A DNA stretch of 64,000 nt. It comes from an uncultured Elusimicrobia bacterium. Lineage in GTDB: Bacteria; Elusimicrobiota; Elusimicrobia; 2-02-FULL-39-32. A program made the translations under genes and the position numbers. The stretch spans positions 164,147-228,146 of the forward strand of contig CAZFYO010000003.1 of NCBI GenBank assembly GCA_964523525.1, given 5' to 3'. Positions 2,076 to 28,064 of this stretch are shown here, one piece after another (within the stretch, counting starts at the first letter, position 1; every line of letters begins with the position of its first letter). Under the pieces are notes generated by a model. It had not been told where the DNA came from. It saw nothing but the letters and a program-made list of their open reading frames with translations, and did not search any database.

Positions 2076-4734
2076 GCGCGGCGCCGCGCCGGAACAAAAA
2101 GCCGGTCGGCGCGATTTTTCCGCGCTGGCTCGCCAGCCTGTCCAATAAATTTTTGTAGATCGGATCCTCGCGCAGCCCCGTTTCGGGCCGCCGCCGGATT
2201 TCCTCCAGAAGGCCCATCACCAAAGCCGCGTTCGCCGGAGTATGGTGCCAATCCGCAAACCATAAGTTCAGCAGGCCTTTCAGCTCTTCTCTTGTTAAGC
2301 TCCTTCCTTGCAGATAGCGCGCCAGCAGGAGGTCGGGCTCGCGCGCTTTCCTCTGGTCGTACCGGAACAGAAACGTCGACAGGCTGCCCATGTACTGGCT
2401 TTTTGCCGCGCCGAATTCGAGTTGCGGGTAAAAATCCGTGTGCAGGCGGCCGAGGCCCGCGATCTGCTCGATGCCGGGGCCAGAAACAAGCTCGTGGACA
2501 AGCAGCGAGACGGGGACTGTAATTCCAATGCGCGCCAGGTCGTCCCGCACCGCGGGGACCGACATGCGCTCCCGCAAAATCTCGAAGTTAACGGCGAGAG
2601 GTTTCTTCGATCCGACCACCATCATGTCATAGGCCTGGGAGTTCCAGACCGAAACGTGGGGGAATACGGTCTGGAACGTGCGCAGGATCATCTGCACGGT
2701 TTCGTCCGTCATGGAATAGAGGTGAAACCACTGGACCATCAACCCGTCGTCCTCGAGCCGCCGGCTGCAGAGCTCAAAAAATTCTCGCGTGAAGAGGTTC
2801 GCCACGCCCGGCATGCGCGGGTTGGAGGGTTCGCTCAAAATGACGTTATAGATTTTCCGGTTACGGGCCAGGAACGATTTCGCGTCGTCCACGGCCACGG
2901 CCGCGTTGGGGTCCCGCTCGGCCTGATGGTTAAAGTTCCCGAAAAACGGGGCCGCTTCCATGACCTCGGGCGATATCTCGACCAGGTCCAGCTGCGTGTT
3001 CGGGTGGCGGAGCGCCGCGCCCGCGCTGATGCCGCTGCCGTAACCGATGCAGAGCGCGCTCGTCGGCGCCGATCGCTCGGGCCGCAGCAGCATGGGCAGG
3101 TGGCCCAGCATCAGCTCCGTTCCCAGATCGCCGTAAGCGGACGCGTCGGTTTTCCCGTTGATCTTAAGCACGCGTTCTCTTCCTCCATGTTCCACCACGG
3201 CCACCGTTGATTCCGCGCCGTCCTTATAAAAGAGAATCTTCGATCCGTCCAGCCCGCGTTTGAAGTCCGCGTAGCTGGGCGGCGGCGCGTTCCGCCAGGA
3301 AAAGTATGGGTTCATCAGGACGAGCGATTCCTTCCAGTCGTTTTTGCCAAAAACCATCAGCCCGATGGCAGCCGCCAGGGCGATTCCGGGAACCATCGCC
3401 CATTTTTGAGAGGCCTGCCCTCGCGGATCGCGCGCAAGCCGGAAAGAAATGGCTCCGCAGGCGATGGCCAGCAACGCCGAGACTTTCAAAGCGCCTTCAA
3501 TCCCGAACAGCGGCAGGAAGACAAGTCCCGCGGCCATCGATCCGGCCAAAGTCCCCGCCAGGTTGGACGAAAAAGCGATGCCCACGCCCTCGCTTGCGCG
3601 CCGTTTATAGGAAGAAATCCATTGGCTTGCCATGGGAAGCGCCGCGCCGGAAAAAAAAGTGGGAAGGAGCATCAGGATAAAACAAAATCCGAACGTGAAT
3701 GTTTGATAGATCCAAAAATTGTCCTCGGAATGCTTCAGGCTCGAGGCCATGTGGATGAAATAGTAGGGGAGGCGCGGGTACAGCGGGAACGAGAGGACCA
3801 TCGCCAGGCCGAAAGACAGCTGGCAGAAACCGAAAGAGCGCAGGATGCCGCCGGCCGTGGGGTTGCGGGCGAGCGGCCGCGAAGCGAAGAAGCTCCCGAG
3901 CGTGATTCCCAGGATGAACGCGGAGAGCATAAGGGAGAACGAATAGAGCGTCGAGCCCAGGATGAGAGCGAAGAATCGAAACCAGACGATTTCCAGCACG
4001 AGCGCCGTGAATCCCGAGAGGAACGCGGCCGCGGCCATCCAGCGGAATTGAAGGACGGTTCCAAACGGTTCGCCTGACCTTGCGTCGGGGCCCGCGTTCA
4101 GGTTTTTCGTGGATAACGATTCTTCGGGCGCGGATTCTGCGCGTGGCGCCAGAAGCAGTGCGCCCAGCCCCGAAAGCCCGCTGATAGCCGCGCCCGACAG
4201 CATCGTCAGGTCCAATCCCAGGTTTTGAATCAGCCAAAGCGAGCTCGCCGCGGAGCCGATCACGGCGCCCAGCGAGTTGACCGCGTAGAGCAGGCCCGTC
4301 ATCTTCTGCGTTTCCTGGAAGTCGCCCGCGAAGGCGCGGATCAGCACGGGAAACGTTCCGCCCATCAGGAAAGTCGGAATCATGAGCAGGGCGGCGGAAA
4401 TCGCGGCGCGGAACGGGAAAGATGAGAGAAGTTCGAAACCGGACGCGAAATAGAGCGCCTGCGTCCAGCGGTGGGCAAGCGGGTAACAGGCACAGAGGAT
4501 CGCGATGCCGAGTTCCAGCCCCGCGTAGGCGAGCACGGGATTCTTAAACCGCGCGCTCCATTTGCCGAACGCATAGTTGCCGAGCGCCAATCCCGCGAGA
4601 AAAGCCGCCAGCACAACCGTGTGGGCCTGCGTGGTGCTGCCGAGGGTCAGGGAAAGGTAGCGCGACCAGGAAACCTCATAGACGAGGCCGGCGATGCCGG
4701 AGAGGAAGAAGAGAAAACCTAGGATGCCTTTCAT
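2068..4734 (-). CDS. Fused multi-pass membrane (MFS-like) / spermidine-synthase-like (polyamine aminopropyltransferase fold) protein, 888 aa
   Basis: N-terminal ~500 aa is highly hydrophobic with many TM helices. The C-terminal part has the SAM-MTase/spermidine synthase motifs ALCIGYGSGISAGAAL, VDLVEISPEVMEAA and NVILSEPSNP. This architecture is common for 'fused MFS/spermidine synthase' proteins. Confidence 0.7.
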   Translation of the reverse strand: MKGILGFLFFLSGIAGLVYEVSWSRYLSLTLGSTTQAHTVVLAAFLAGLALGNYAFGKWSARFKNPVLAYAGLELGIAILCACYPLAHRWTQALYFASGFELLSSFPFRAAISAALLMIPTFLMGGTFPVLIRAFAGDFQETQKMTGLLYAVNSLGAVIGSAASSLWLIQNLGLDLTMLSGAAISGLSGLGALLLAPRAESAPEESLSTKNLNAGPDARSGEPFGTVLQFRWMAAAAFLSGFTALVLEIVWFRFFALILGSTLYSFSLMLSAFILGITLGSFFASRPLARNPTAGGILRSFGFCQLSFGLAMVLSFPLYPRLPYYFIHMASSLKHSEDNFWIYQTFTFGFCFILMLLPTFFSGAALPMASQWISSYKRRASEGVGIAFSSNLAGTLAGSMAAGLVFLPLFGIEGALKVSALLAIACGAISFRLARDPRGQASQKWAMVPGIALAAAIGLMVFGKNDWKESLVLMNPYFSWRNAPPPSYADFKRGLDGSKILFYKDGAESTVAVVEHGGRERVLKINGKTDASAYGDLGTELMLGHLPMLLRPERSAPTSALCIGYGSGISAGAALRHPNTQLDLVEISPEVMEAAPFFGNFNHQAERDPNAAVAVDDAKSFLARNRKIYNVILSEPSNPRMPGVANLFTREFFELCSRRLEDDGLMVQWFHLYSMTDETVQMILRTFQTVFPHVSVWNSQAYDMMVVGSKKPLAVNFEILRERMSVPAVRDDLARIGITVPVSLLVHELVSGPGIEQIAGLGRLHTDFYPQLEFGAAKSQYMGSLSTFLFRYDQRKAREPDLLLARYLQGRSLTREELKGLLNLWFADWHHTPANAALVMGLLEEIRRRPETGLREDPIYKNLLDRLASQRGKIAPTGFLFRRGAAPI

Positions 4735-9131: not shown

Positions 9132-10517
9132 TCAGGACCACTGGACGCGGTTGCGTCCGGCGTTTTTGGCGGCGTAGAGGGCTTTGTCGGCTTTTTCGAT
9201 GAGCTGTTCGGCCATGGAGGCGTCTTTGGGGAATGTCGCGCCGCCGATGCTGACCGTGATCCGCTCCTCGGGCATCTTATCCTGCCCGGGGAAAACGGCC
9301 TGTTCGATCTGCTTGCGCAGGCGCTCGGCCACGGCTTTGCCGCCTTCGGGCGGCGTTTCCGAAAGGATAATGACAAACTCCTCGCCGCCGTAGCGGGCCA
9401 CCAGGCTGTCCTGGCGGAGGGCTTCCTTCAGCATGTTTGCCATCTGCTTCAGGAGGACGTTGCCCAGGGGGTGGCCGTTGGCGTCGTTGAACTTCTTGAA
9501 GTGGTCGATGTCCAGAATGAGCAGGACAAAAGTATGTTTATAGCGGTGCGACCGCGTGATCTCGTTTTTGATCTGGTTCTGGAAGTAGCGCAGGTTGTAG
9601 AGACCGGTGAGCGAGTCGGTTATGGTTTCGGTGACGAGCCGCTCCTGGTTTTCCTTGAGCTTGGCGATCATCGTGTTGAATTCGTGGGTCAGATAGCCGA
9701 TCTCGTCGCCGCTTTCGACCGGCAATTCGACGTTCAGCTGGCCCGAGGTCACTTTGCGCACGCCCTGAAGGAGGTTCTGCAGCGGCTTCGATATGTTGAA
9801 GGATAGGATGAACCCGACCACGCTCACGGCCAGGAGCACGGCCGCGCCCGACGTCAGCGCGCTCATCTGTGTCGCGAGCAGCGTGTCCTGCATGCTCTTT
9901 TCGGACTCTTCCAGCTTCACGCGAGCGATGTCCACGAGTTTGTCGCAGAGGTAGAAAATGGTGTTCAACCGCGTCTGGCCTTCGCGGGAAATCGTCGAGA
10001 TCTTCTGCTCGCGCTTTTCGATCTTCAGCTCCTGCTTGGCGGTGTCCGCCTTGGAAGGTCCCGTGATCGCCTGTTTGAGCTTGCCGATCATGCCTTTTCC
10101 GGCCGGCGCGACCTCGGGCGGTTTGGATTTGTAGGTGCTCATCAGCGCCTTGTTCTCGCCTTCGTACTCCGACATCTCCTGGCGAATCTGAACGAGGAGG
10201 TCTTTTTCCGTCTCGGTCTGGCTCAGGCTCTGCATCTGCATGATCCACTGCAGGACCGTGTCGCGCGCGGCGGCTTTTTCTTCCAGGAGGCGCGGGTTTT
10301 TGGTGGTCAGATAGCGGAAAGTGAGATTGTCGTAAAGCGCAACGTTATACTTGATGAGCTGGGCCGAGCGCATGGCGGCCATGTTATTGGAAATCATGTC
10401 CTGCATGCGGCGCGTGATCTCCTCCTGCGTCTGCATCAGGTTCCAGATAAACGCGCTCACCAGCACGATGATGGACACCGAGGCCAGGGCGATTTTGGTT
10501 TTTATGCTGAGGTGCAT
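9132..10517 (-). CDS. Sensor diguanylate cyclase: 2 TM helices, periplasmic sensor region, HAMP and a GGDEF domain
   Basis: N-terminal TM, second TM (AAVLLAVSVVGFILSF) followed by a HAMP-like segment. C-terminal GGDEF domain with intact active site RYGGEEF and an upstream RxxD-like I-site region. Confidence 0.85.
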   Translation of the reverse strand: MHLSIKTKIALASVSIIVLVSAFIWNLMQTQEEITRRMQDMISNNMAAMRSAQLIKYNVALYDNLTFRYLTTKNPRLLEEKAAARDTVLQWIMQMQSLSQTETEKDLLVQIRQEMSEYEGENKALMSTYKSKPPEVAPAGKGMIGKLKQAITGPSKADTAKQELKIEKREQKISTISREGQTRLNTIFYLCDKLVDIARVKLEESEKSMQDTLLATQMSALTSGAAVLLAVSVVGFILSFNISKPLQNLLQGVRKVTSGQLNVELPVESGDEIGYLTHEFNTMIAKLKENQERLVTETITDSLTGLYNLRYFQNQIKNEITRSHRYKHTFVLLILDIDHFKKFNDANGHPLGNVLLKQMANMLKEALRQDSLVARYGGEEFVIILSETPPEGGKAVAERLRKQIEQAVFPGQDKMPEERITVSIGGATFPKDASMAEQLIEKADKALYAAKNAGRNRVQWS

Positions 10518-10592: not shown

Positions 10593-12614
10593 TTAAAACT
10601 CTAAACCCTCTTCTTTCATGACGCGCAACAGTTCCGCGACGCCGCGGGACTCCGCCACGCAGCCGCGGGGGTTGAAAGGAGGGTTGCCGTCGAACATTTC
10701 GGAGACGGTGCCGAGCCCTGCGTCCGACAGGTGCGAGACGAAGGGTCGCAGGAAATTGATGGCTTCGCCGCGCGTTTTCTGGTCGCGGCCGTAGGTTTTG
10801 AAGAACGCGGTCAGGAACGGGCCGATCAGGTAGGGCATGACGGTCCCGTTGTGCATCGCCGCCATGCGGGCGCGTTCGCTTCCCTTGATAACGCCGTGGA
10901 AATGCGGTTCCGCGGGCGCGAGCGTCCGCAGGCCGAGCGACGTGTACAGGGTCCGCCAGGCCGTTTCCATCAGTGGTTTGAAGCGGTCGTTATCCAGAAT
11001 CTCATAAGGCAGGCTGACGGCAAACAGAGCGTTCGGGCGGATGGAGCCTTCGCGCTTGTTGCCTTCGATGAGATCGTAGAGAAAGTTGTTTTGGGCGTTC
11101 CAGAAAAGCTGGTTGAAGCTTTCGCGGACCTTTTTTGCCAGATCGGTCCAGCCGTCGTCGCTTTTGCCCAGTTTGAGCGCGATCTCGCAGTAAAATTGGA
11201 TGGCGTTATACCAGAGCGCCTGGATCTCGACGGGTTTGCCTCGCCGAGGGGTGCTCATCTTGTCGCCGTCTTTGGCGTCCATCCAGGTGAGGGGCATGTT
11301 GGGCGAGGCCCCCTGGATCAGGCCGTCGGCGTCCATCTTGATCTCCAGTTTGTTGTCGGGTTCATGGATCGTGATGCCGCTTTTGAACGCCCGCAAAATG
11401 TCCTCAACGCCGGGCAGCATCTTCCGCATGAATTCCAGGTCTTTGGTCGTTTCCCAGTATTTTTGGAGCGCCCAGACATACCAAAACGACGCGTCCATAT
11501 TATTGTAGGCGGCGAGGTTTTGCGGGTCGCTCGAAAACTTGGCGGGCAGCAAGCCGTTGCGGAGAAGGCCGGACGCCTCTTCGAGGATCGACTTCGCGTC
11601 TTCGACGCGCCCCGTCGCCAGGCAGATGCCCGGCAGGCTCATGAGGGTCTCGCGGCACGTGTCGTCGTACCAGGGGTAGCCGGTGATCATCCGGATGCCG
11701 CTTTCCGTGCGGATCAGAAACTGGTCCGCGGCCAACAGGCAGCGCCGCAGGAAAGGCGGCGGCGTCAGCATTTTTTCGAAAACCTTGCTGCGGATGAAAA
11801 GCTCCTGGTCGATCCATTTCTCGATCGAAACGGGTTCGGGCGGCTTCCGCGAAAAAACGAGAGCGACCTCCTGGCCTTCCGAAAGCTCTACGATGACCTG
11901 GCCCGGGCTGTAGAGGTCTTCCTGATGATCATGCTCCATTTCCTCATCCTGCGCGTAAAGCACGTTCTTGTACCAGTAGCCGTCCGCGTAAATCTTGATG
12001 TTGTCCCTGACGGAAGCGGGTTCGCCCACCGCCGTGATATAAAATTCCGGCTGGTTTTGAACGGAGCAGTGGATCTGGTTGTCCGTGAAGCGGATCGCGT
12101 TCCGGAAGCGGTTGTCTTCCTTCAAAATGTGAGCGTGGTTCCGGCAGGACAGGAAGGGGCGCAGGACGAGCTTCACGGTCGGTCCGATCAGGTGGCGGTA
12201 CACCACGACCGCCGTCTCCTCGCCGCTGCGCAGGAAGAACCGTTTCTCAATCTTGAGGTCGTCCACGGAATAGGTCCAGCGGGGGAAGGGCTCGTAATTG
12301 AAGCTTTCCAAAAAGAGATGGCCTTGCGGGGATATCGTCCCCGGATATTCCTGGCAGGAAAAGTCCGCGCGGTGGCCGCGGATGAGGGCCGATTCCTCGA
12401 CGCGGTTCACCAGGACGCTGCGGTCAAGGTTCGGCTCCGAGGTTACGGTGAAGAGCCCGTGGTAGCGCCGCGTGTTGGCGCCCACGATTGTGCCCATGGC
12501 GTAGGATCCGAGGCCGTTGGTCTCGATCCATTCCTTGGTGATGCCGGTATCGATGATGTTCAGCACGTGCCGGCCGAACGAATAGATGGGAATGGGGCTT
12601 TTAGCAGTTGTCAT
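10593..12614 (-). CDS. Glycogen debranching enzyme, archaeal type (GDE_N + amylo-alpha-1,6-glucosidase domain)
   Basis: N-terminal motif NGLGSYAMGTIVGANTRRYHGLF is typical of GDE_N. 673 aa. A C-terminal (alpha/alpha)6 glucosidase-like region is conserved. Confidence 0.75.
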   Translation of the reverse strand: MTTAKSPIPIYSFGRHVLNIIDTGITKEWIETNGLGSYAMGTIVGANTRRYHGLFTVTSEPNLDRSVLVNRVEESALIRGHRADFSCQEYPGTISPQGHLFLESFNYEPFPRWTYSVDDLKIEKRFFLRSGEETAVVVYRHLIGPTVKLVLRPFLSCRNHAHILKEDNRFRNAIRFTDNQIHCSVQNQPEFYITAVGEPASVRDNIKIYADGYWYKNVLYAQDEEMEHDHQEDLYSPGQVIVELSEGQEVALVFSRKPPEPVSIEKWIDQELFIRSKVFEKMLTPPPFLRRCLLAADQFLIRTESGIRMITGYPWYDDTCRETLMSLPGICLATGRVEDAKSILEEASGLLRNGLLPAKFSSDPQNLAAYNNMDASFWYVWALQKYWETTKDLEFMRKMLPGVEDILRAFKSGITIHEPDNKLEIKMDADGLIQGASPNMPLTWMDAKDGDKMSTPRRGKPVEIQALWYNAIQFYCEIALKLGKSDDGWTDLAKKVRESFNQLFWNAQNNFLYDLIEGNKREGSIRPNALFAVSLPYEILDNDRFKPLMETAWRTLYTSLGLRTLAPAEPHFHGVIKGSERARMAAMHNGTVMPYLIGPFLTAFFKTYGRDQKTRGEAINFLRPFVSHLSDAGLGTVSEMFDGNPPFNPRGCVAESRGVAELLRVMKEEGLEF

Positions 12615-23179: not shown

Positions 23180-25054
23180 ATGACCGCCCAAAGCCGGGTC
23201 TGGCTCGCGCTCGCCGCCTGCATGGCCCTGTCCTTCCTGATCTACGCACCCTCCATCAAGGCCCCGTTTTTTTTCGACGACGAAACGAATTTTATCGATA
23301 ATCCGGATATCCGGAAGCTGGAGAATCTGAAAACCCGGCTGGTGTTCAAGATGGAAAAGATGGCGCAGAACACCAACGTCCCCACGCGCGCCATAACGTT
23401 CCTGACGTTCACCCTGGAATATGCCCTCTGGGGTAAAAATCCGTCCGGCTACAGGGTCGTCAACATCGCCCTGCACGGCCTGGCGGCATTCCTGCTTTTC
23501 CTCCTGCTAAGGGAAATTCTGGCGCGATGGAATCTGGGCGAATACCTCTTTGGCGTTGCGCTCGCCGGGGCCATGCTTTTTTGCGCCCATCCGATGCAGG
23601 GCGACGCGGTCGCCTACATCAGCAACCGGTCCGACGTGCTCGCGGCCCTGTTTTCCCTGCTGGCGCTGGTCCTCTTTTCGCGCGCGGGTCCGGACCGCGG
23701 CCGGGCGGCGGCCCGTCTCGTCTTCGCGAACTTCGCATTTGCGGCGGCGATTCTTTCCAAAGAGACCGCCGCGACATTCCCTCTGATTCTCCTGGGCTAC
23801 GATTATTTCATCGCCGCGAACAGGGACGGCGCGGCGCTGCGGAATCGCTGGCGGCGCCATGCCCCGTTTTGGGGAACCCTCGCTCTCTATATGATTTATC
23901 GGCGTGCGCTGATGGGCGACTTGATGTACCAATGGGCCCTGCAGGAAGATTCCTGGACGTCAATGGAGTATCTGTCAATGCAGGTGATGGCCATTCCGAA
24001 ATATCTGCGCCTGCTTTTGGCGCCCGTCGGACAATGCATCGACCATATTCTGCTGCCTCCCGATTCCTGGCTGGAGCCCCGGATGCTTGTTGCGTTCGCC
24101 GCCTGGGCCGCGATTCTGGCGCTGGCCGCGTTCCTAATCCGTGGGACGTGGAAAGCAAAATCCACCGCCGCGCTTTTTTCATCCGCCTGTTTTGGGATGT
24201 TGTGGTTTTTCGCGGGGCTGGCACCCAGCTCCAGCGTCTTTCCCATTTTTGACGCTATGGTGGAGCGCCGTGTCTATTGGCCTTCCGGCGGCTGGGTCCT
24301 GGGCGTGCTGGCCTTTTACGCCTGGCTTTTCGACGCGACGGAAAATGGTCCGGTCAATGGCGCGAACCATTCCAAAAAAATAATCGTCTTCCTGTCGGTC
24401 CACACCGCGATCCTCGCCCTTTTCACTTTGCACCGCAGCACGCTGTACGGACATCCCGAACGGCTCTGGATAGAGGCCGTCGCCCGCTACCCCGGGAACC
24501 CGCGGGCTTACGTCAATCTGGGGTCCTATATTGAGAAAAAAAATCCGGCGAAAGCCGTTGAGCTCGGCCGTATGGCACTGAGCCTGAACCCGAAATATGC
24601 CGTGGCCCAGAACAATCTGGGCAACGCGCTTTACGCGCTCAATGACGTGGAAGGCGCCGTGGCTTCCTATCAGAAGGCGATTGAGTTGAAGCCCGGATGG
24701 GTCCAGCCCTACATCAACCTGGCCGGCATGCATTACCACGCCCGCCGGCTGAAGGAAGCCGAGGCAATGTACTTGAAAGCGCTGGCGCTCGAAACAGGGT
24801 ACGCGCTGGTCTATAACAATCTCGGCTCCATCTATTTTGAGAGGGGCGAAACGGAGATGGCGGTGGATTTTTATAACAAGGCGATCGAGACCGACGCCGG
24901 TTACGGGTTGGCCTATTACAATCTGGCTCTGGTTCTGGTTGCCAGGAAGCAATTCGACCTCGCGCTGAAAGCCATGGTGTCCGCACGTGCTCTGTTGCCG
25001 GACAACCCGGCCGTTGAGAACAATTTGCGCGCGCTGCAGGCCATGAAGCCGTGA
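23180..25054 (+). CDS. TMTC/PMT-like GT-C glycosyltransferase (DUF1736-type polytopic N-domain) with C-terminal TPR repeats, paralog 1
   Basis: ~10 TM helices in the N-terminal 420 aa. The loop-1 acidic motif PFFFDDETNFIDNPDI is the DD/DE motif of GT-C PMT/TMTC/ArnT-type enzymes. The C-terminal ~200 aa contains >=5 TPR units (AxxxLGxALxxxGxxxEAxxxYxKAxEL-type). Confidence 0.7.
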   Translation: MTAQSRVWLALAACMALSFLIYAPSIKAPFFFDDETNFIDNPDIRKLENLKTRLVFKMEKMAQNTNVPTRAITFLTFTLEYALWGKNPSGYRVVNIALHGLAAFLLFLLLREILARWNLGEYLFGVALAGAMLFCAHPMQGDAVAYISNRSDVLAALFSLLALVLFSRAGPDRGRAAARLVFANFAFAAAILSKETAATFPLILLGYDYFIAANRDGAALRNRWRRHAPFWGTLALYMIYRRALMGDLMYQWALQEDSWTSMEYLSMQVMAIPKYLRLLLAPVGQCIDHILLPPDSWLEPRMLVAFAAWAAILALAAFLIRGTWKAKSTAALFSSACFGMLWFFAGLAPSSSVFPIFDAMVERRVYWPSGGWVLGVLAFYAWLFDATENGPVNGANHSKKIIVFLSVHTAILALFTLHRSTLYGHPERLWIEAVARYPGNPRAYVNLGSYIEKKNPAKAVELGRMALSLNPKYAVAQNNLGNALYALNDVEGAVASYQKAIELKPGWVQPYINLAGMHYHARRLKEAEAMYLKALALETGYALVYNNLGSIYFERGETEMAVDFYNKAIETDAGYGLAYYNLALVLVARKQFDLALKAMVSARALLPDNPAVENNLRALQAMKP

Positions 25055-26976
25055 CTCGCGGCCCGAATCAAAACCCGAATCAGAACCCGGCTTCCGCGTC
25101 CGGGCGCGCCGGCGGCGTCTCGTTTCTAATGGCGTTCTTCTGCCTGGTCATCCCCATTCTTTTGTACAGCCCCTCACTGCGCGGGCCATTCGTCTTTGAC
25201 GACTTCTCGAATATCGTCGACAATCGCGATATCCGCAGCCCTGACCGCATCGGGATCGGCCTCCTCAATACGCATTTGATCGTAAAAAACCGACAAGCTC
25301 CGACGCGCCCCGTCACGTCCTTGACCTTCGCTCTCAATTACGTCTGGAACGGCTTGAATCCGTTTGGGTACCGCCTATTCAACATACTCGTTCATTCAGC
25401 TAACACGCTTCTCGTGTTTTTGATGACCCTTATGATTCTCCGACGCCTCCAGGATGCCGCGGTGAAGGAATCCCTGGCGTTCGCCATCGCTCTGATATTC
25501 TGCGTCCACCCGCTCCAGACCGAAGCGGTGGCGTACATCAGCCACCGCAGCGACAGCATGGCCACATTTTTTTATCTCCTATCCATGCTCTCGTTCTTTG
25601 CAGGAAGGGACAGGCGCTGGCCATATTCGGTTCTGCCGGCGGCATTTTTCTTCATTCTCGCAGCGGGTTCCAAGGAGTGGACTTACGCCGCGCTTCCCGC
25701 GGCACTGCTTCTGATCGACGTTCTCGTCTTCAGCCGTTCGGAGAAACTGCGGATGTGGCGGCACGCCCCCATCTGGATTCTGGCGGTCATTCTGATCGCC
25801 TCCCGGAAATATCTGACCGGTCGATGGGGCTTTTTGGGGCCTGATCTCGACCGGATTTGGCCGGCCCTCACGTACGCGGGAGTACAGTCGTATGTCTGGT
25901 TGAAATATGCGGCCCTCTGGTTCCTGCCGCTGTGGCAAACGTTTGATCATTATCTGGTCCCAAACGCGCCGGGGTTGGCCCGCAAGATATTTGCGTCCGC
26001 TGCGTTGTGGTCCGCCGCGATCGTTGGAGCGGGATATTGGATCCACAAACTGGGATGGAAAGAATTTTCCGTGAGGGCCGCGCAGTCGGCCTCAGACCCC
26101 CGGCGCAGGCTCCTATGGCTTGGTCTCGGCATGGCCGCGATATTGATCGCTCCCACCTCCAGCATTATTCCGACGTACGAGGCCATGGCGGAGCGCCGCG
26201 TTTACCTTGCGGTCTGGAGCGGCTCTCTGGCCTGGGTTGCCTTTCTGGCGGGACTGATCAAGAATGGGGGGACGTTGAAAGCGGCCCTCGCGGTTCACAT
26301 CATGCTGCTGGCCGCGTTGACGTGGCGCCGAACCGAACTGTACCGATACCCGGAAAAACTATGGGAGGAGGCGATTGAGCGGTACCCTGAAAATGCGGAC
26401 GCGCACCTGAACCTGGGGGTGGTCGAAATGAAAAACGGCCGTCCCGACAAGGCCCTCCACAACTGGCTTCACGCGGTCGAGCTCCGTAAACTGCGAAACC
26501 CTCAGGCGTTCAACAACATAGGAGAAATTTACTTCCAGCGGGGCGAGATACGCAAGGCCCTGGAATATTTCAAGGAGGCCGCCCGGCAGGACCCCCAATT
26601 ACACTACGCCTGGCGCAACATGGGAGACGCCTTCTATGAGCTGGGGGAGGACGCCGCCGCCGAGGAAAGCTATCACCGCGCCCTCGCTCTGGTCCCGGAC
26701 GAACCCGAGCTCTACAACAATCTCGGCCTGGTTTTGGAACGGCGGAAAAATTTTCCCGGGGCCGAAAAAGCCTATCAAAAGGCGATGGAACTGGACCCCG
26801 ATTTTGCGCCGGCCCACGCGCACCTGGCCGAACTTTATGTTCAAACCGAACGGCTCCCGGAGGCGCTGCGCCGGTACGCGCAGTGGCAGGTTTTGGAGCC
26901 CGACAACCCCGAAATTCCCTCCAAAATCGCCCTGCTCCGCCGCTGGATGTCGGATCGGGCTCGCGGCAAAAAATAG
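25051..26976 (+). CDS. TMTC/PMT-like GT-C glycosyltransferase with C-terminal TPR repeats, paralog 2
   Basis: Same architecture as the upstream gene: polytopic N-domain with PFVFDDFSNIVDNRDI and C-terminal TPRs (NLGVVEMKNGRPDKALHNWLHAVEL...NNLGLVLERRKNFPGAEKAYQKAMELDP). Start overlaps the stop of paralog 1 (ATGA). Confidence 0.7.
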   Translation: MTRGPNQNPNQNPASASGRAGGVSFLMAFFCLVIPILLYSPSLRGPFVFDDFSNIVDNRDIRSPDRIGIGLLNTHLIVKNRQAPTRPVTSLTFALNYVWNGLNPFGYRLFNILVHSANTLLVFLMTLMILRRLQDAAVKESLAFAIALIFCVHPLQTEAVAYISHRSDSMATFFYLLSMLSFFAGRDRRWPYSVLPAAFFFILAAGSKEWTYAALPAALLLIDVLVFSRSEKLRMWRHAPIWILAVILIASRKYLTGRWGFLGPDLDRIWPALTYAGVQSYVWLKYAALWFLPLWQTFDHYLVPNAPGLARKIFASAALWSAAIVGAGYWIHKLGWKEFSVRAAQSASDPRRRLLWLGLGMAAILIAPTSSIIPTYEAMAERRVYLAVWSGSLAWVAFLAGLIKNGGTLKAALAVHIMLLAALTWRRTELYRYPEKLWEEAIERYPENADAHLNLGVVEMKNGRPDKALHNWLHAVELRKLRNPQAFNNIGEIYFQRGEIRKALEYFKEAARQDPQLHYAWRNMGDAFYELGEDAAAEESYHRALALVPDEPELYNNLGLVLERRKNFPGAEKAYQKAMELDPDFAPAHAHLAELYVQTERLPEALRRYAQWQVLEPDNPEIPSKIALLRRWMSDRARGKK

Positions 26977-27016
26977 ACCCTCCCAACCGCCCAAAAAAAT
27001 CTCAAAAATTGAAATA

Positions 27017-27058
27017 TTTATCATATTGATAAATAAGCCTGATAGGTGTATTTATCAG
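27017..27058. promoter_or_regulatory. Operator-like element: two inverted repeats made of four TGATA[AG] half-sites. TTTATCA-tat-TGATAAA (27017-27033) and CTGATA-N8-TATCAG (27039-27058).
   Basis: Perfect 7-bp and 6-bp palindromic arms read from the sequence. They sit in an AT-rich island ~30-70 bp upstream of the -35 hexamer of the promoter below. Confidence 0.45.
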
Positions 27059-27085
27059 ATATTTTTCGGAATCCTGACTTGGGCC

Positions 27086-27114
27086 TTGACAAAAAGGGCT
27101 TCGGGGGGTATAAC
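27086..27114 (+). promoter_or_regulatory. Sigma70-type promoter: TTGACA (27086-27091), 17-bp spacer, TATAAC (27109-27114). Predicted TSS is ~27121.
   Basis: Consensus -35, optimal 17-bp spacer, 5/6 match at -10. Preceded by an A-rich UP-like tract. No ORF in the following ~220 nt. Confidence 0.55.
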
Positions 27115-27147
27115 TCTGCCATAGTTCACTGATCTTTCATTGGCTTA

Positions 27148-27268
27148 CACGACAATAGCACACTCCAAGTAATTGGAGGCCGCAAAGCCCTCGCCGCCAG
27201 GCGGGGCCCTCTTAACGTGAAGAGGGTACGGGCCCTGCAAAGCGCAGGGCGGCCGGGTTGCCGAAGCA
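27148..27268 (+). ncRNA. Candidate cyclic-di-GMP-I (GEMM) riboswitch aptamer in the 5' leader of the giant-gene operon
   Basis: Hairpin CUCCA-aguaau-UGGAG followed by CCGCAAAGCC (27181-27190; Vc2 has ACGCAAAGCC). Long-range pairing GCCGCC (27193-27198) / GGCGGC (27248-27253) encloses the internal hairpins CCCUCUU-aacgug-AAGAGGG. 3' element GCGGCCGGGUUGCCGAAG (27248-27266; Vc2 has GCGGGGUUACCGA). A second GCAAAGC lies at 27237-27243. The match is to the GEMM consensus as remembered, not computed. Confidence 0.4.
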
Positions 27269-27292
27269 AGTCCAAAACCTCTTGAGAACAGG

Positions 27293-27339
27293 AGCTGGAT
27301 TTTCTGCGGCAAAGCGCCCGGGAAAAACCAGCTTTTTTT
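27293..27339 (+). terminator. Putative intrinsic terminator / riboswitch expression platform. Stem AGCUGG (27293-27298) / CCAGCU (27328-27333) followed by U7 (27333-27339), directly abutting the ATG at 27340.
   Basis: Complementary 6-nt arms plus a T7 tract read from the sequence. The loop is long (29 nt) and contains a third GCAAAGC (27309-27315) that could take part in an alternative anti-terminator pairing. Confidence 0.35.
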
Positions 27340-27867
27340 ATGAAACACCACAACCTGACCCTCGAGATTAAAAAGCGCGCGATGGCCGTTCTGGCCGGAG
27401 CGGCTTTTTGCCTTTCCTTCATCGCCGTTTCCCATGCCGCCGATCCCGCCTCCTCCAAAGCATACTGGACTAATTTCCTGAACGATGGGTTGAGCGACCA
27501 GTCGCTCGACGTGCGGGACTCCGCCAACCGGCCGGTCTCCGGGCGGGTCCAAAAGGACTCCTTCAAACAGCTGTTCATCCTTACTGTTTTCCGTTTTGCC
27601 GACACCGAATTTTCTCCCGGATTGAGCCGCCTCCGCAGGATGCTTGCGGACGCCATTAACCCTCTGGCCCAGAAACTGCGGGCCGCGGCCGGACACATTT
27701 GGCAATGCGCCGAGAGTTTCGCGCTGAACCTCAACAAGCAGATCCACCGCCTCGTCCGCTTTGTCCCCTTGGGCGCGGGGGATTCTCCCGGCGGGATCAT
27801 CTCCCGGGATTCCGGCCTCTCGATTTCGTTTCAAACCGCACAATCCAACCTGCCTCTCCGCTGCTAA
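27340..27867 (+). CDS. Hypothetical small secreted protein (175 aa) immediately upstream of the giant gene
   Basis: Signal-peptide-like segment MAVLAGAAFCLSFIAVSHAADP. The true start may be the internal Met at ~27382. No recognisable domain and no obvious SD, so it is uncertain. Confidence 0.35.
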   Translation: MKHHNLTLEIKKRAMAVLAGAAFCLSFIAVSHAADPASSKAYWTNFLNDGLSDQSLDVRDSANRPVSGRVQKDSFKQLFILTVFRFADTEFSPGLSRLRRMLADAINPLAQKLRAAAGHIWQCAESFALNLNKQIHRLVRFVPLGAGDSPGGIISRDSGLSISFQTAQSNLPLRC

Positions 27868-27998
27868 TCCGCCCGCTCGCCTAGAGCGTTTCTCCCCTTG
27901 GGGAAGCGCGCACGTCTCCGAACACCGGCCGCCAACCGTCTGATTGATTGTTTTATCGCCATTGCTCCGCCCGTTTTTTGAAAGGCACAGTTTCGTTT

Positions 27999-28024
27999 TA
28001 CGCGCGCACGCGCGTGCGCGTACG
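27999..28024. repeat. 26-nt perfectly alternating pyrimidine-purine, near-palindromic tract TACGCGCGCACGCGCGTGCGCGTACG ~40 nt upstream of the giant-gene start
   Basis: Read directly from the sequence. Potential Z-DNA-forming segment or a stable ~10-bp RNA hairpin (one A-C mismatch) in the inter-cistronic region. Confidence 0.3.
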
Positions 28025-28064
28025 AGGAATCGACGGAAAAAAGGAGCCTGAACCACTCGAAACC

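Follow-up and report, generated by a model that had tools for sequence, protein, structure and literature searches.

We analysed the leader RNA (27121-27339) upstream of a small and a giant open reading frame (ORF) in a stretch of 64,000 nucleotides (nt) from an uncultured Elusimicrobia bacterium (GenBank assembly GCA_964523525.1, contig CAZFYO010000003.1, positions 164,147 to 228,146). This whole stretch is referred to as the window; coordinates are those of the window and its forward (+) strand, unless marked (-). The leader RNA is a riboswitch of the GEMM-I class and a member of Rfam family RF01051 (c-di-GMP-I). At the position where the archetype of this family, the Vc2 aptamer of Vibrio cholerae, reads cyclic di-GMP (c-di-GMP) with G20, the leader and all its relatives carry A (A20). 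We favour the reading, at a probability of about 0.55, that this A20 riboswitch responds to cyclic GMP-AMP (cGAMP), or to both dinucleotides, and acts as an OFF switch for the 175-residue (175-aa) and the giant ORF. An earlier note on this DNA, which had proposed a GEMM riboswitch here, was right on the family; its internal helix, its likely ligand and its likely direction of control need correction.

The leader RNA belongs to the GEMM-I class

A search with all 4227 Rfam families at their gathering thresholds (cmscan) returned a single match in the 64 kb, to RF01051 at 27147-27265 (+). The match scored 37.7 bits against a gathering threshold (GA) of 35 (E = 0.00085) and covered model positions 1-87 of 87. 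The modest score arises because helix P3 holds 55 nt where the model expects 19, not from mismatches in the core. No match to c-di-GMP-II (RF01786) was obtained in the window at the gathering threshold, nor in 26900-27500 at E values up to 10. The GEMM-I assignment of the earlier note was thus borne out by the covariance search with RF01051 and RF01786 that it had proposed. Having passed the RF01051 threshold, the element would be annotated automatically, and the basic family call is therefore an ordinary one.

Two Rfam variants of the same clan (CL00126), RF03167 (GGC) and RF03168 (UAU), matched the window and its homologues below threshold (33-46 bits against GA of 59 and 65.9), because they share their scaffold with RF01051. 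Their pockets are G/G/C and U/A/U, whereas that of the window is A/A/C. RF03167 (c-di-GMP-I-GGC) scored 33.4 bits on the window (GA 59), and position 47 is A, not the required G. Membership in RF03167, RF03168 or RF01786 was rejected on the scores and the pocket letters.

The aptamer occupies 27148-27266, with P1 formed by CACG (27148-27151) and CGAAG (27262-27266). The motifs previously read from the letters are all found where they had been placed, namely the promoter, a short hairpin, CCGCAAAGCC (27180-27189), the complementary pair GCCGCC (27193-27198) and GGCGGC (27248-27253), GCGGCCGGGUUGCCGAAG (27249-27266), and a stem followed by seven U residues (U7) with GCAAAGC inside.

Relatives of the leader were found through the downstream small ORF, except for L009, which came independently from scanning GTDB genomes with a DNA pattern. 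The set comprises L001, L002, L009, L014, L015, L016 and L017; L003 and L004 are the same organism as the window. It provides six other distinct leaders from five further lineages, making seven distinct leaders with that of the window. L009 is an Elusimicrobiota metagenome-assembled genome (MAG), in which a chorismate-binding enzyme is 64% identical to the syntenic enzyme in the window. A GEMM-I-like aptamer lies immediately upstream of the small ORF in the leaders of all relatives, and the seven leaders have a common layout: promoter, aptamer, a spacer of variable length and a hairpin closing in a U-run. Between the window and L001, blocks of the leader are near-identical, while the 175-aa proteins share 56% identity. 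Note that 5 of the 8 matches of the genome pattern scan were not GEMM-I, and that the sole return of the metagenome pattern scan was an unrelated GEMM-I aptamer with G20.

Could the leader be a decayed structure that binds no ligand, such as a constitutive attenuator or a protein-binding element that merely resembles GEMM-I? The RF01051 score is just 2.7 bits over the gathering score, and L002, owing to an insertion in P2, scores 25 bits. However, the pocket and core nucleotides are invariant between lineages while the helices vary by compensatory change, and the leader is conserved far better than the protein downstream. The low score, moreover, is due to the 55-nt insert in P3. We consider decay very improbable.

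An adenine at the ligand-reading position

In Vc2, one of the two guanines of c-di-GMP is recognised at its Hoogsteen edge by G20; GEMM-Ib riboswitches, which recognise cGAMP, carry A at this position (PMC6140456). The cmscan alignment places A27157 at the equivalent of G20 (model position 11, consensus G, unpaired before a GC pair). The decamer AAUAGCACAC is identical in all lineages, and A20 is present in 7 of 7 distinct leaders. The other two pocket residues are canonical and invariant in all homologues: A47 corresponds to A27184, within GCAAAGCC, and C92 to C27261, within UUGCCGAA. Three unrelated GEMM-I aptamers, two from Acidobacteriota (L011 and L012) and one from a metagenome contig (L013), were also picked up in the pattern scans; all of them carry G at position 20.

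The leader thus combines the GEMM-I fold with A at position 20, the combination that defines GEMM-Ib, and has A27157 where a c-di-GMP-specific aptamer has G. This supports its assignment to the A20 subtype of cyclic-dinucleotide riboswitches, exemplified by GEMM-Ib. Wild-type Vc2 rejects cGAMP, but its mutant G20A binds cGAMP (120 nM) and c-di-GMP (53 nM) with similar affinity (PMC6140456). Protonation of the adenine enables A20 aptamers to bind c-di-GMP as well; among natural A20 riboswitches, Gs1761 of Geobacter is selective for cGAMP and Cbe 1-2 of Clostridium is bispecific (PMC6140456). The aptamer of the window would therefore be expected to bind 3',3'-cGAMP no less well than c-di-GMP.

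Because A27157 marks GEMM-Ib or bispecific riboswitches, c-di-GMP is an unsafe ligand call. The earlier note had named it as the ligand; the class on which this rested (GEMM-I, RF01051) stands, but the base equivalent to G20 is A in the window and in every homologue. We estimate about an even chance that the physiological ligand is cGAMP, or cGAMP and c-di-GMP together. That it is c-di-GMP alone seems appreciably less likely, and the remainder would fall to another ligand or to none. Two observations weigh against cGAMP. A20 alone does not confer selectivity for cGAMP, as the bispecific binding by Vc2 G20A and Cbe 1-2 shows, and no recognised cGAMP synthase was seen in the 64-kb window (neither a Hypr GGDEF protein with Ser/Thr and GGDEF, nor, among the scanned ORFs, a DncV/CD-NTase).

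The strongest competitor is an ordinary c-di-GMP-specific GEMM-I riboswitch, in a cell that makes no cGAMP, in which A20 merely lowers the affinity and so tunes the aptamer to the cellular range of c-di-GMP. In its favour, c-di-GMP-I is the best Rfam match, the GGEEF motif is intact in the GGDEF protein encoded nearby, an A20 aptamer retains binding of c-di-GMP (53 nM in Vc2 G20A; PMC6140456), and a canonical cGAMP synthase was not seen within the 64 kb. Yet A20 is invariant over six lineages whose downstream proteins are 25-56% identical, which points to selection for A. All natural A20 GEMM-I riboswitches tested in PMC6140456 and PMC6456294 bind cGAMP, and the sole GGDEF protein of the window lacks both the guanine-reading Asp and the cross-dimer Arg (see below). 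We regard specificity for c-di-GMP as rather unlikely, and recognition of cGAMP, alone or besides c-di-GMP, as the better account of the pocket.

Aptamer architecture and covariation

For analysis of the core, five distinct sequences were aligned after splicing: the P2 insertions of L001/L002 and L017 were removed and P3 interiors were replaced by N. With the Rfam structure, 97.3% of the cells of this alignment were paired, compared to 14-53% when the 3' partners were slid by 1-3 columns. The P2 hairpin (27163-27178) consists of CUCCAA, the GNRA-type tetraloop GUAA (27169-27172) and UUGGAG. Its six pairs were formed in 100% of the cells, with two-sided changes at three of them (U-A to C-G, C-G to G-C and A-U to G-C). 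P1, the two G-C pairs beside the pocket and the base of P3 never vary and are therefore uninformative on the structure, either way.

P3 is a four-way junction (27186-27259), closed by a base helix of AGCC (27186-27189) with GGUU (27256-27259). According to RNAalifold, it contains three local hairpins, P3a (27190-27205), P3b (27206-27227) and P3c (27229-27255). In the five sequences with a long P3, the junction has 28 pairs, 7 of them compensatory. This domain is the 55-nt insert of the Rfam alignment. L016 and L017 have one ordinary P3 hairpin on the same core, and the three-hairpin P3 is therefore a peripheral, dispensable elaboration.

The earlier note had drawn a long-range GCCGCC/GGCGGC helix here. 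The complementarity exists, but RNAalifold and the compensatory changes in L014 favour local hairpins: at the 5' site L014 has CCAUCC/GGAUGG, which is able to form a local hairpin only. We rejected the long-range helix on these grounds. The covariation expected of the proposed helices was accordingly found in part, with compensatory changes in P2 and in P3a, P3b and P3c and no support for the long-range pairing.

An aptamer derived from GEMM-I for a different, so far undescribed dinucleotide, with the enlarged P3 (P2 in relatives) aiding recognition, would account for peripheral domains that are conserved and covarying. The sub-threshold matches to RF03167 and RF03168, variants defined by changes in the pocket, would fit with it, as would a GGDEF clade with Asn and a non-Arg residue, which could yield an unusual product (see below). 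A20/A47/C92, however, is exactly the known cGAMP pocket, with positions 47 and 92 canonical, and L016 shows the P3 domain to be dispensable, having a short canonical P3 on the same core. We judge a novel ligand to be quite improbable, and retain cGAMP, with or without c-di-GMP, as the preferred ligand.

Further enlargements of the fold were seen. An insertion of ~66-68 nt is present at the same point of the 5' strand of P2 in L001 (7382-7449), L002 (95-162) and L017 (~3945-4010). It forms two hairpins, with 10 of 28 pairs compensatory, and converts P2 into a multi-way junction. The Rfam scores of members with this insertion fall below threshold (25 bits for L002). GEMM-I aptamers with G20 and long P3 inserts are found in L011 (3391-3509 (-); a Pyrinomonadaceae MAG), L012 (70-187 (-); a Thermoanaerobaculia MAG) and L013 (~12210-12330 (+); a metagenome contig). 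Thus, large P3 insertions are not restricted to the A20 family.

Expression platform and direction of control

A predicted intrinsic terminator (27293-27339) separates the aptamer from the first start codon. It consists of a 5' arm (T5), AGCUGGAUUUUC (27293-27304), an interior (27305-27320), a 3' arm (T3; 27321-27332) and the U7 tract (27333-27339). The hairpin (-18.7 kcal/mol) contains an A x A mismatch at 27299 and forms when the downstream segment is folded alone. All leaders retain this stem and the U-run, as well as the CUGGAUUUU arm. CGGCA and CCCGG in the interior are complementary to aptamer residues 27254-27263, and GCAAAGC lies at 27309-27315. The stem and U7 with GCAAAGC inside that had been pointed out before thus have their place at 27293-27339, with an interior complementary to the 3' side of the aptamer.

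The linker X (AAGUCCA, 27268-27274) between aptamer and terminator has two possible partners and would serve as the switching strand. It can pair with GGCUU of the 5' leader (27142-27146 with 27268-27272) in a proposed extension of P1, termed P0; in the window UUGGCUU and AAGUCCAA pair with -5.4 kcal/mol (RNAduplex). Equivalents of P0 are GACUU in L001 and GG.UUUA x UAAA.CC in L009 and L014. Alternatively, X pairs with UGGAUUU of T5 (27297-27303) in 7 base pairs, which occur at the same place in the window, L001, L002, L009 and L014. The five sequences in which an adenine of T5 (CUGG-A-UUUU) pairs with the U of X are exactly those in which this adenine is mismatched within the terminator. In L016 and L017, both without the X x T5 helix, this adenine is paired within the terminator.

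The minimum-energy fold of the full leader of the window (-86.1 kcal/mol) contains no terminator. Residues 27254-27263 (CCGGGUUGCCG) pair with 27308-27320, and X pairs with 27297-27303. Constrained folding gave -86.1 kcal/mol with the antiterminator forced and -79.0 kcal/mol with the aptamer core forced; aptamer and downstream segment folded separately sum to about -80 kcal/mol. The leader of L009 folds like that of the window, favouring the antiterminator, and that of L014 weakly so. When RNAs of increasing length were folded, P0 and P1 formed once X had just emerged (L001, L009 and L014), and X x T5 replaced P0 after T5 had been transcribed (window, L001 and L009). The leader thus holds the features of an attenuator, a GC-containing hairpin and a U-tract between aptamer and start codon, along with a mutually exclusive alternative pairing predicted by folding.

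These elements suggest a three-way competition: X would be contested by the 5' leader and T5, and T3 would capture T5 when the leader holds X. Without ligand, X, aided by the aptamer 3' strand (27254-27263), would pair with the 5' arm and interior of the terminator, and RNA polymerase would read through to the 175-aa and giant ORFs. With ligand bound, P1 and P0 (27142-27146 with 27268-27272) would sequester X, allowing the hairpin at 27293-27332 to form with U7, and transcription would end before the message of more than 36 kb. Folding and conservation together make it rather probable that the element is an OFF switch, in which ligand-stabilised P1/P0 leads to termination. The earlier note had surface display of the giant protein gated by c-di-GMP; the wiring predicts that the signal would repress the giant protein rather than induce it.

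Several results count against this direction of control. The terminator state is 3 kcal/mol more stable in L001 and L002, and about 10 kcal/mol more stable in L016 and L017, so that the OFF logic rests chiefly on four lineages and on thermodynamic folding. Summed over the lineages, pairing of the aptamer 3' strand with the terminator interior was no better than with shuffled interiors (-89.5 compared to a mean of -82.4, p = 0.14), and we therefore use this helix as support in the window and in L009 only. X and T5 vary too little for covariation on both sides to be seen. Finally, high c-di-GMP usually turns adhesion on, and a dinucleotide that represses a surface protein would run counter to this pattern.

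The same aptamer could thus form part of a genetic ON switch, where ligand promotes read-through and the signal induces the giant protein. Induction of surface proteins by dinucleotides is the commoner biological arrangement, and in L001, L002, L016 and L017 the terminator is the thermodynamic default, as an ON switch requires. The Geobacter GEMM-Ib elements are ON switches, deletion of gacA lowering the expression of all downstream genes (PMC6456294). However, the aptamer 3' strand does not overlap the 5' arm of the terminator. The sole conserved partner of this arm is X, which adjoins the 3' strand of P1 and also extends P1 through the leader. Stabilisation of P1 should therefore remove an antiterminator, not create one. 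Moreover, no sequence was found that would sequester X solely in the absence of ligand. We consider ON control unlikely, and the OFF switch the more consistent with the conserved wiring.

Promoter and downstream genes

The leader lies within a 363-nt gap 3' of the gene for a TPR protein (25051-26976). The near-consensus promoter mentioned in the earlier note was found as a sigma-70-type promoter at 27086-27114, with TTGACA (27086-27091), a 17-nt spacer and TATAAC (27109-27114); transcription would start near 27121. TTGACA and the 17-nt spacing are invariant in 7 of 7 distinct leaders, with TATAAC, TATATA, TATAGT or TATATT as the -10 hexamer. Note that a consensus scan for promoters and terminators (-10 ending in T; terminator loop of 3-8 nt) missed both the promoter and the terminator of the leader, the former because its -10 hexamer ends in C and the latter because of the loop rule.

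Two AT-rich inverted repeats are located just upstream of the -35 box: TTATCATATTGATAA at 27018-27032, identical in L001, and CTGATAGGTGTATTTATCAG (CTGATA...TATCAG) at 27039-27058. They may be the binding site of a transcription factor acting on the leader promoter.

The first gene after the riboswitch is the 175-aa ORF (27340-27867), whose AUG abuts the U7 tract without a Shine-Dalgarno sequence. The protein has a signal-like N-terminal segment, an invariant C-terminal LPLRC and a DVRD motif common to the family, and matches no Pfam family. Single-sequence and profile searches of 5.8 billion proteins returned six clusters of this family in total. The riboswitch precedes each of them, and a giant ORF follows wherever the contig reaches. 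An AlphaFold2 model of the 175-aa protein is helical and of low confidence (mean predicted local distance difference test score 55.7, predicted template-modelling score 0.23).

The giant ORF runs from 28065 to beyond 64000, in a frame that has no stop codon between 27948 and the end of the window (at least 12,017 codons). ATG 28065 is its likely start, preceded by AAGGAG and followed by a signal peptide, 197 nt 3' of the 175-aa ORF. Pfam matches were weak and to bacterial Ig-like domains (Big_13, Big_7 and Big_3_3); a word-based search with the N-terminal 500 residues found no homologue at E values up to 1e-5. In five lineages the riboswitch is followed by the small ORF and then by the giant ORF, as seen from gene calls in L001, L003, L014 and L017 and from alignment in L009. 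The consensus scan recognised neither a sigma-70-like promoter nor a terminator between the two ORFs. Because of this and the conserved gene order, the giant ORF is probably on the same transcript as the 175-aa ORF. The earlier description of the leader as that of a giant-gene operon is consistent with the synteny and with the lack of a recognised promoter or terminator, except that the first gene is the 175-aa ORF.

The region between the two ORFs contains a block that is nearly invariant in four lineages, CCCG-TTTTTGA at 27970-27982 followed by CGCGCGCACGCGCGTGCGCGTACGAG at 28001-28026. The latter includes a perfect alternating GC palindrome of 18 nt (28003-28020). The block (27970-28026) might act on the giant gene as an operator, as a processing site or as a hairpin in the RNA. 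In view of its strong conservation, an additional control point or start site for the giant ORF may lie between the two ORFs.

A neighbouring GGDEF protein

As the earlier note had stated, a HAMP-GGDEF protein is encoded at 9132-10517 (-), and Pfam confirmed both domains. A search of PDB sequences returned as top match 6d9m_A, a T4-lysozyme fusion of a Geobacter Hypr GGDEF domain (E = 4.7e-34), with a marginal lead over canonical cyclases (E = 7.5e-34). In the alignment, Leu309 (codon 9591-9593) corresponds to Tyr304 of GacA and Asn353 (codon 9459-9461) to Ser348; adding an offset of 130 to chain positions 174 and 218 confirms this numbering. The active-site motif is GGEEF and the I-site is RQDS.

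Hypr enzymes are defined by Ser/Thr348, GGDEF and a non-Arg cross-dimer residue, whereas canonical cyclases have Asp at position 348 and a cross-dimer Arg in 94% of cases (PMC6456294). By this definition the GGDEF protein of the window is not a Hypr enzyme, as Leu309 fits but Asn353 and GGEEF do not, a combination that counts to some degree against the cGAMP reading. An exhaustive HMMER search of 1.84 billion cluster representatives showed that the ~20 closest full-length homologues all combine Asn with a non-Arg residue (L, F, Q, H or Y); more distant GGDEF matches have Asp and Arg again. The Asn/non-Arg proteins thus look like a clade with altered purine specificity; a literature search found no paper on this Asn-type GGDEF clade.

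With both Hypr-defining positions non-canonical, the clade is a possible source of a matching signal, and Leu, Phe, Gln or His may have replaced the cross-dimer Arg in it. One might picture a cGAMP-type pathway of so far undescribed components, in which HAMP-GGDEF proteins of this clade would write the signal and the A20 riboswitch would read it, aborting transcription of the giant surface protein. We give this complete pathway a low likelihood.

Comparison with described GEMM-I riboswitches

The closest parallels are the Geobacter GEMM-Ib riboswitches (Gs1761/pgcA and Gm0970). Like the leader of the window, they have the GEMM-I fold with A20, A47 and C92, act on transcription through an intrinsic terminator, and precede genes for extracellular or surface proteins. 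In the crystallised Gs1761 RNA, the 5' junction CACGACAAUA is presumably the same as well. In contrast to the Geobacter elements, which belong to Deltaproteobacteria, the window is from Elusimicrobiota, its P3 is a four-way junction with three hairpins, its wiring predicts OFF instead of ON control, and no Hypr GGDEF protein (Ser348 and GGDEF) was seen in it.

Vc2 shares P1/P2/P3, a GNRA tetraloop, the GCAAAGCC and UGCCGA core, A47 and C92 with the leader. It differs in having G20, binding c-di-GMP with picomolar affinity and rejecting cGAMP; in addition, the window has the tetraloop GUAA, not GAAA, and no evident 11-nt receptor. At position 20 the leader instead resembles the G20A mutant of Vc2, which binds both dinucleotides at ~50-120 nM (PMC6140456). 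The bispecific Cbe 1-2 of Clostridium beijerinckii is likewise a natural A20 GEMM-I riboswitch from outside Deltaproteobacteria (PMC6140456). Set against it by description, not by sequence, the leader differs in phylum and gene context, and P3 of Cbe 1-2 is simple.

Implications

The GEMM-I scaffold tolerates entire extra domains, a P3 four-way junction in four lineages and a P2 two-hairpin module in two. Such enlarged members would be useful for work on RNA structure and for better covariance models, as they now score near or below threshold. Because A20 does not vary, an automatic annotation as "c-di-GMP" may point to the wrong signal.

What raises the value of a routine family call is the conjunction of the A20 subtype in a new phylum, a giant regulated gene and a non-canonical GGDEF clade. 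A20 GEMM-I riboswitches have been described from Geobacter and one Clostridium (PMC6140456, PMC6456294). One in Elusimicrobiota would widen their known range and point to cGAMP signalling in this phylum. If the proposed pathway is true, GGDEF-made mixed dinucleotides and GEMM-Ib riboswitches would extend to a new phylum, with a new enzyme signature. For the organism, a decision taken within about 200 nt would govern a message of more than 36 kb and a protein of at least 12,017 residues, showing why early attenuation pays.

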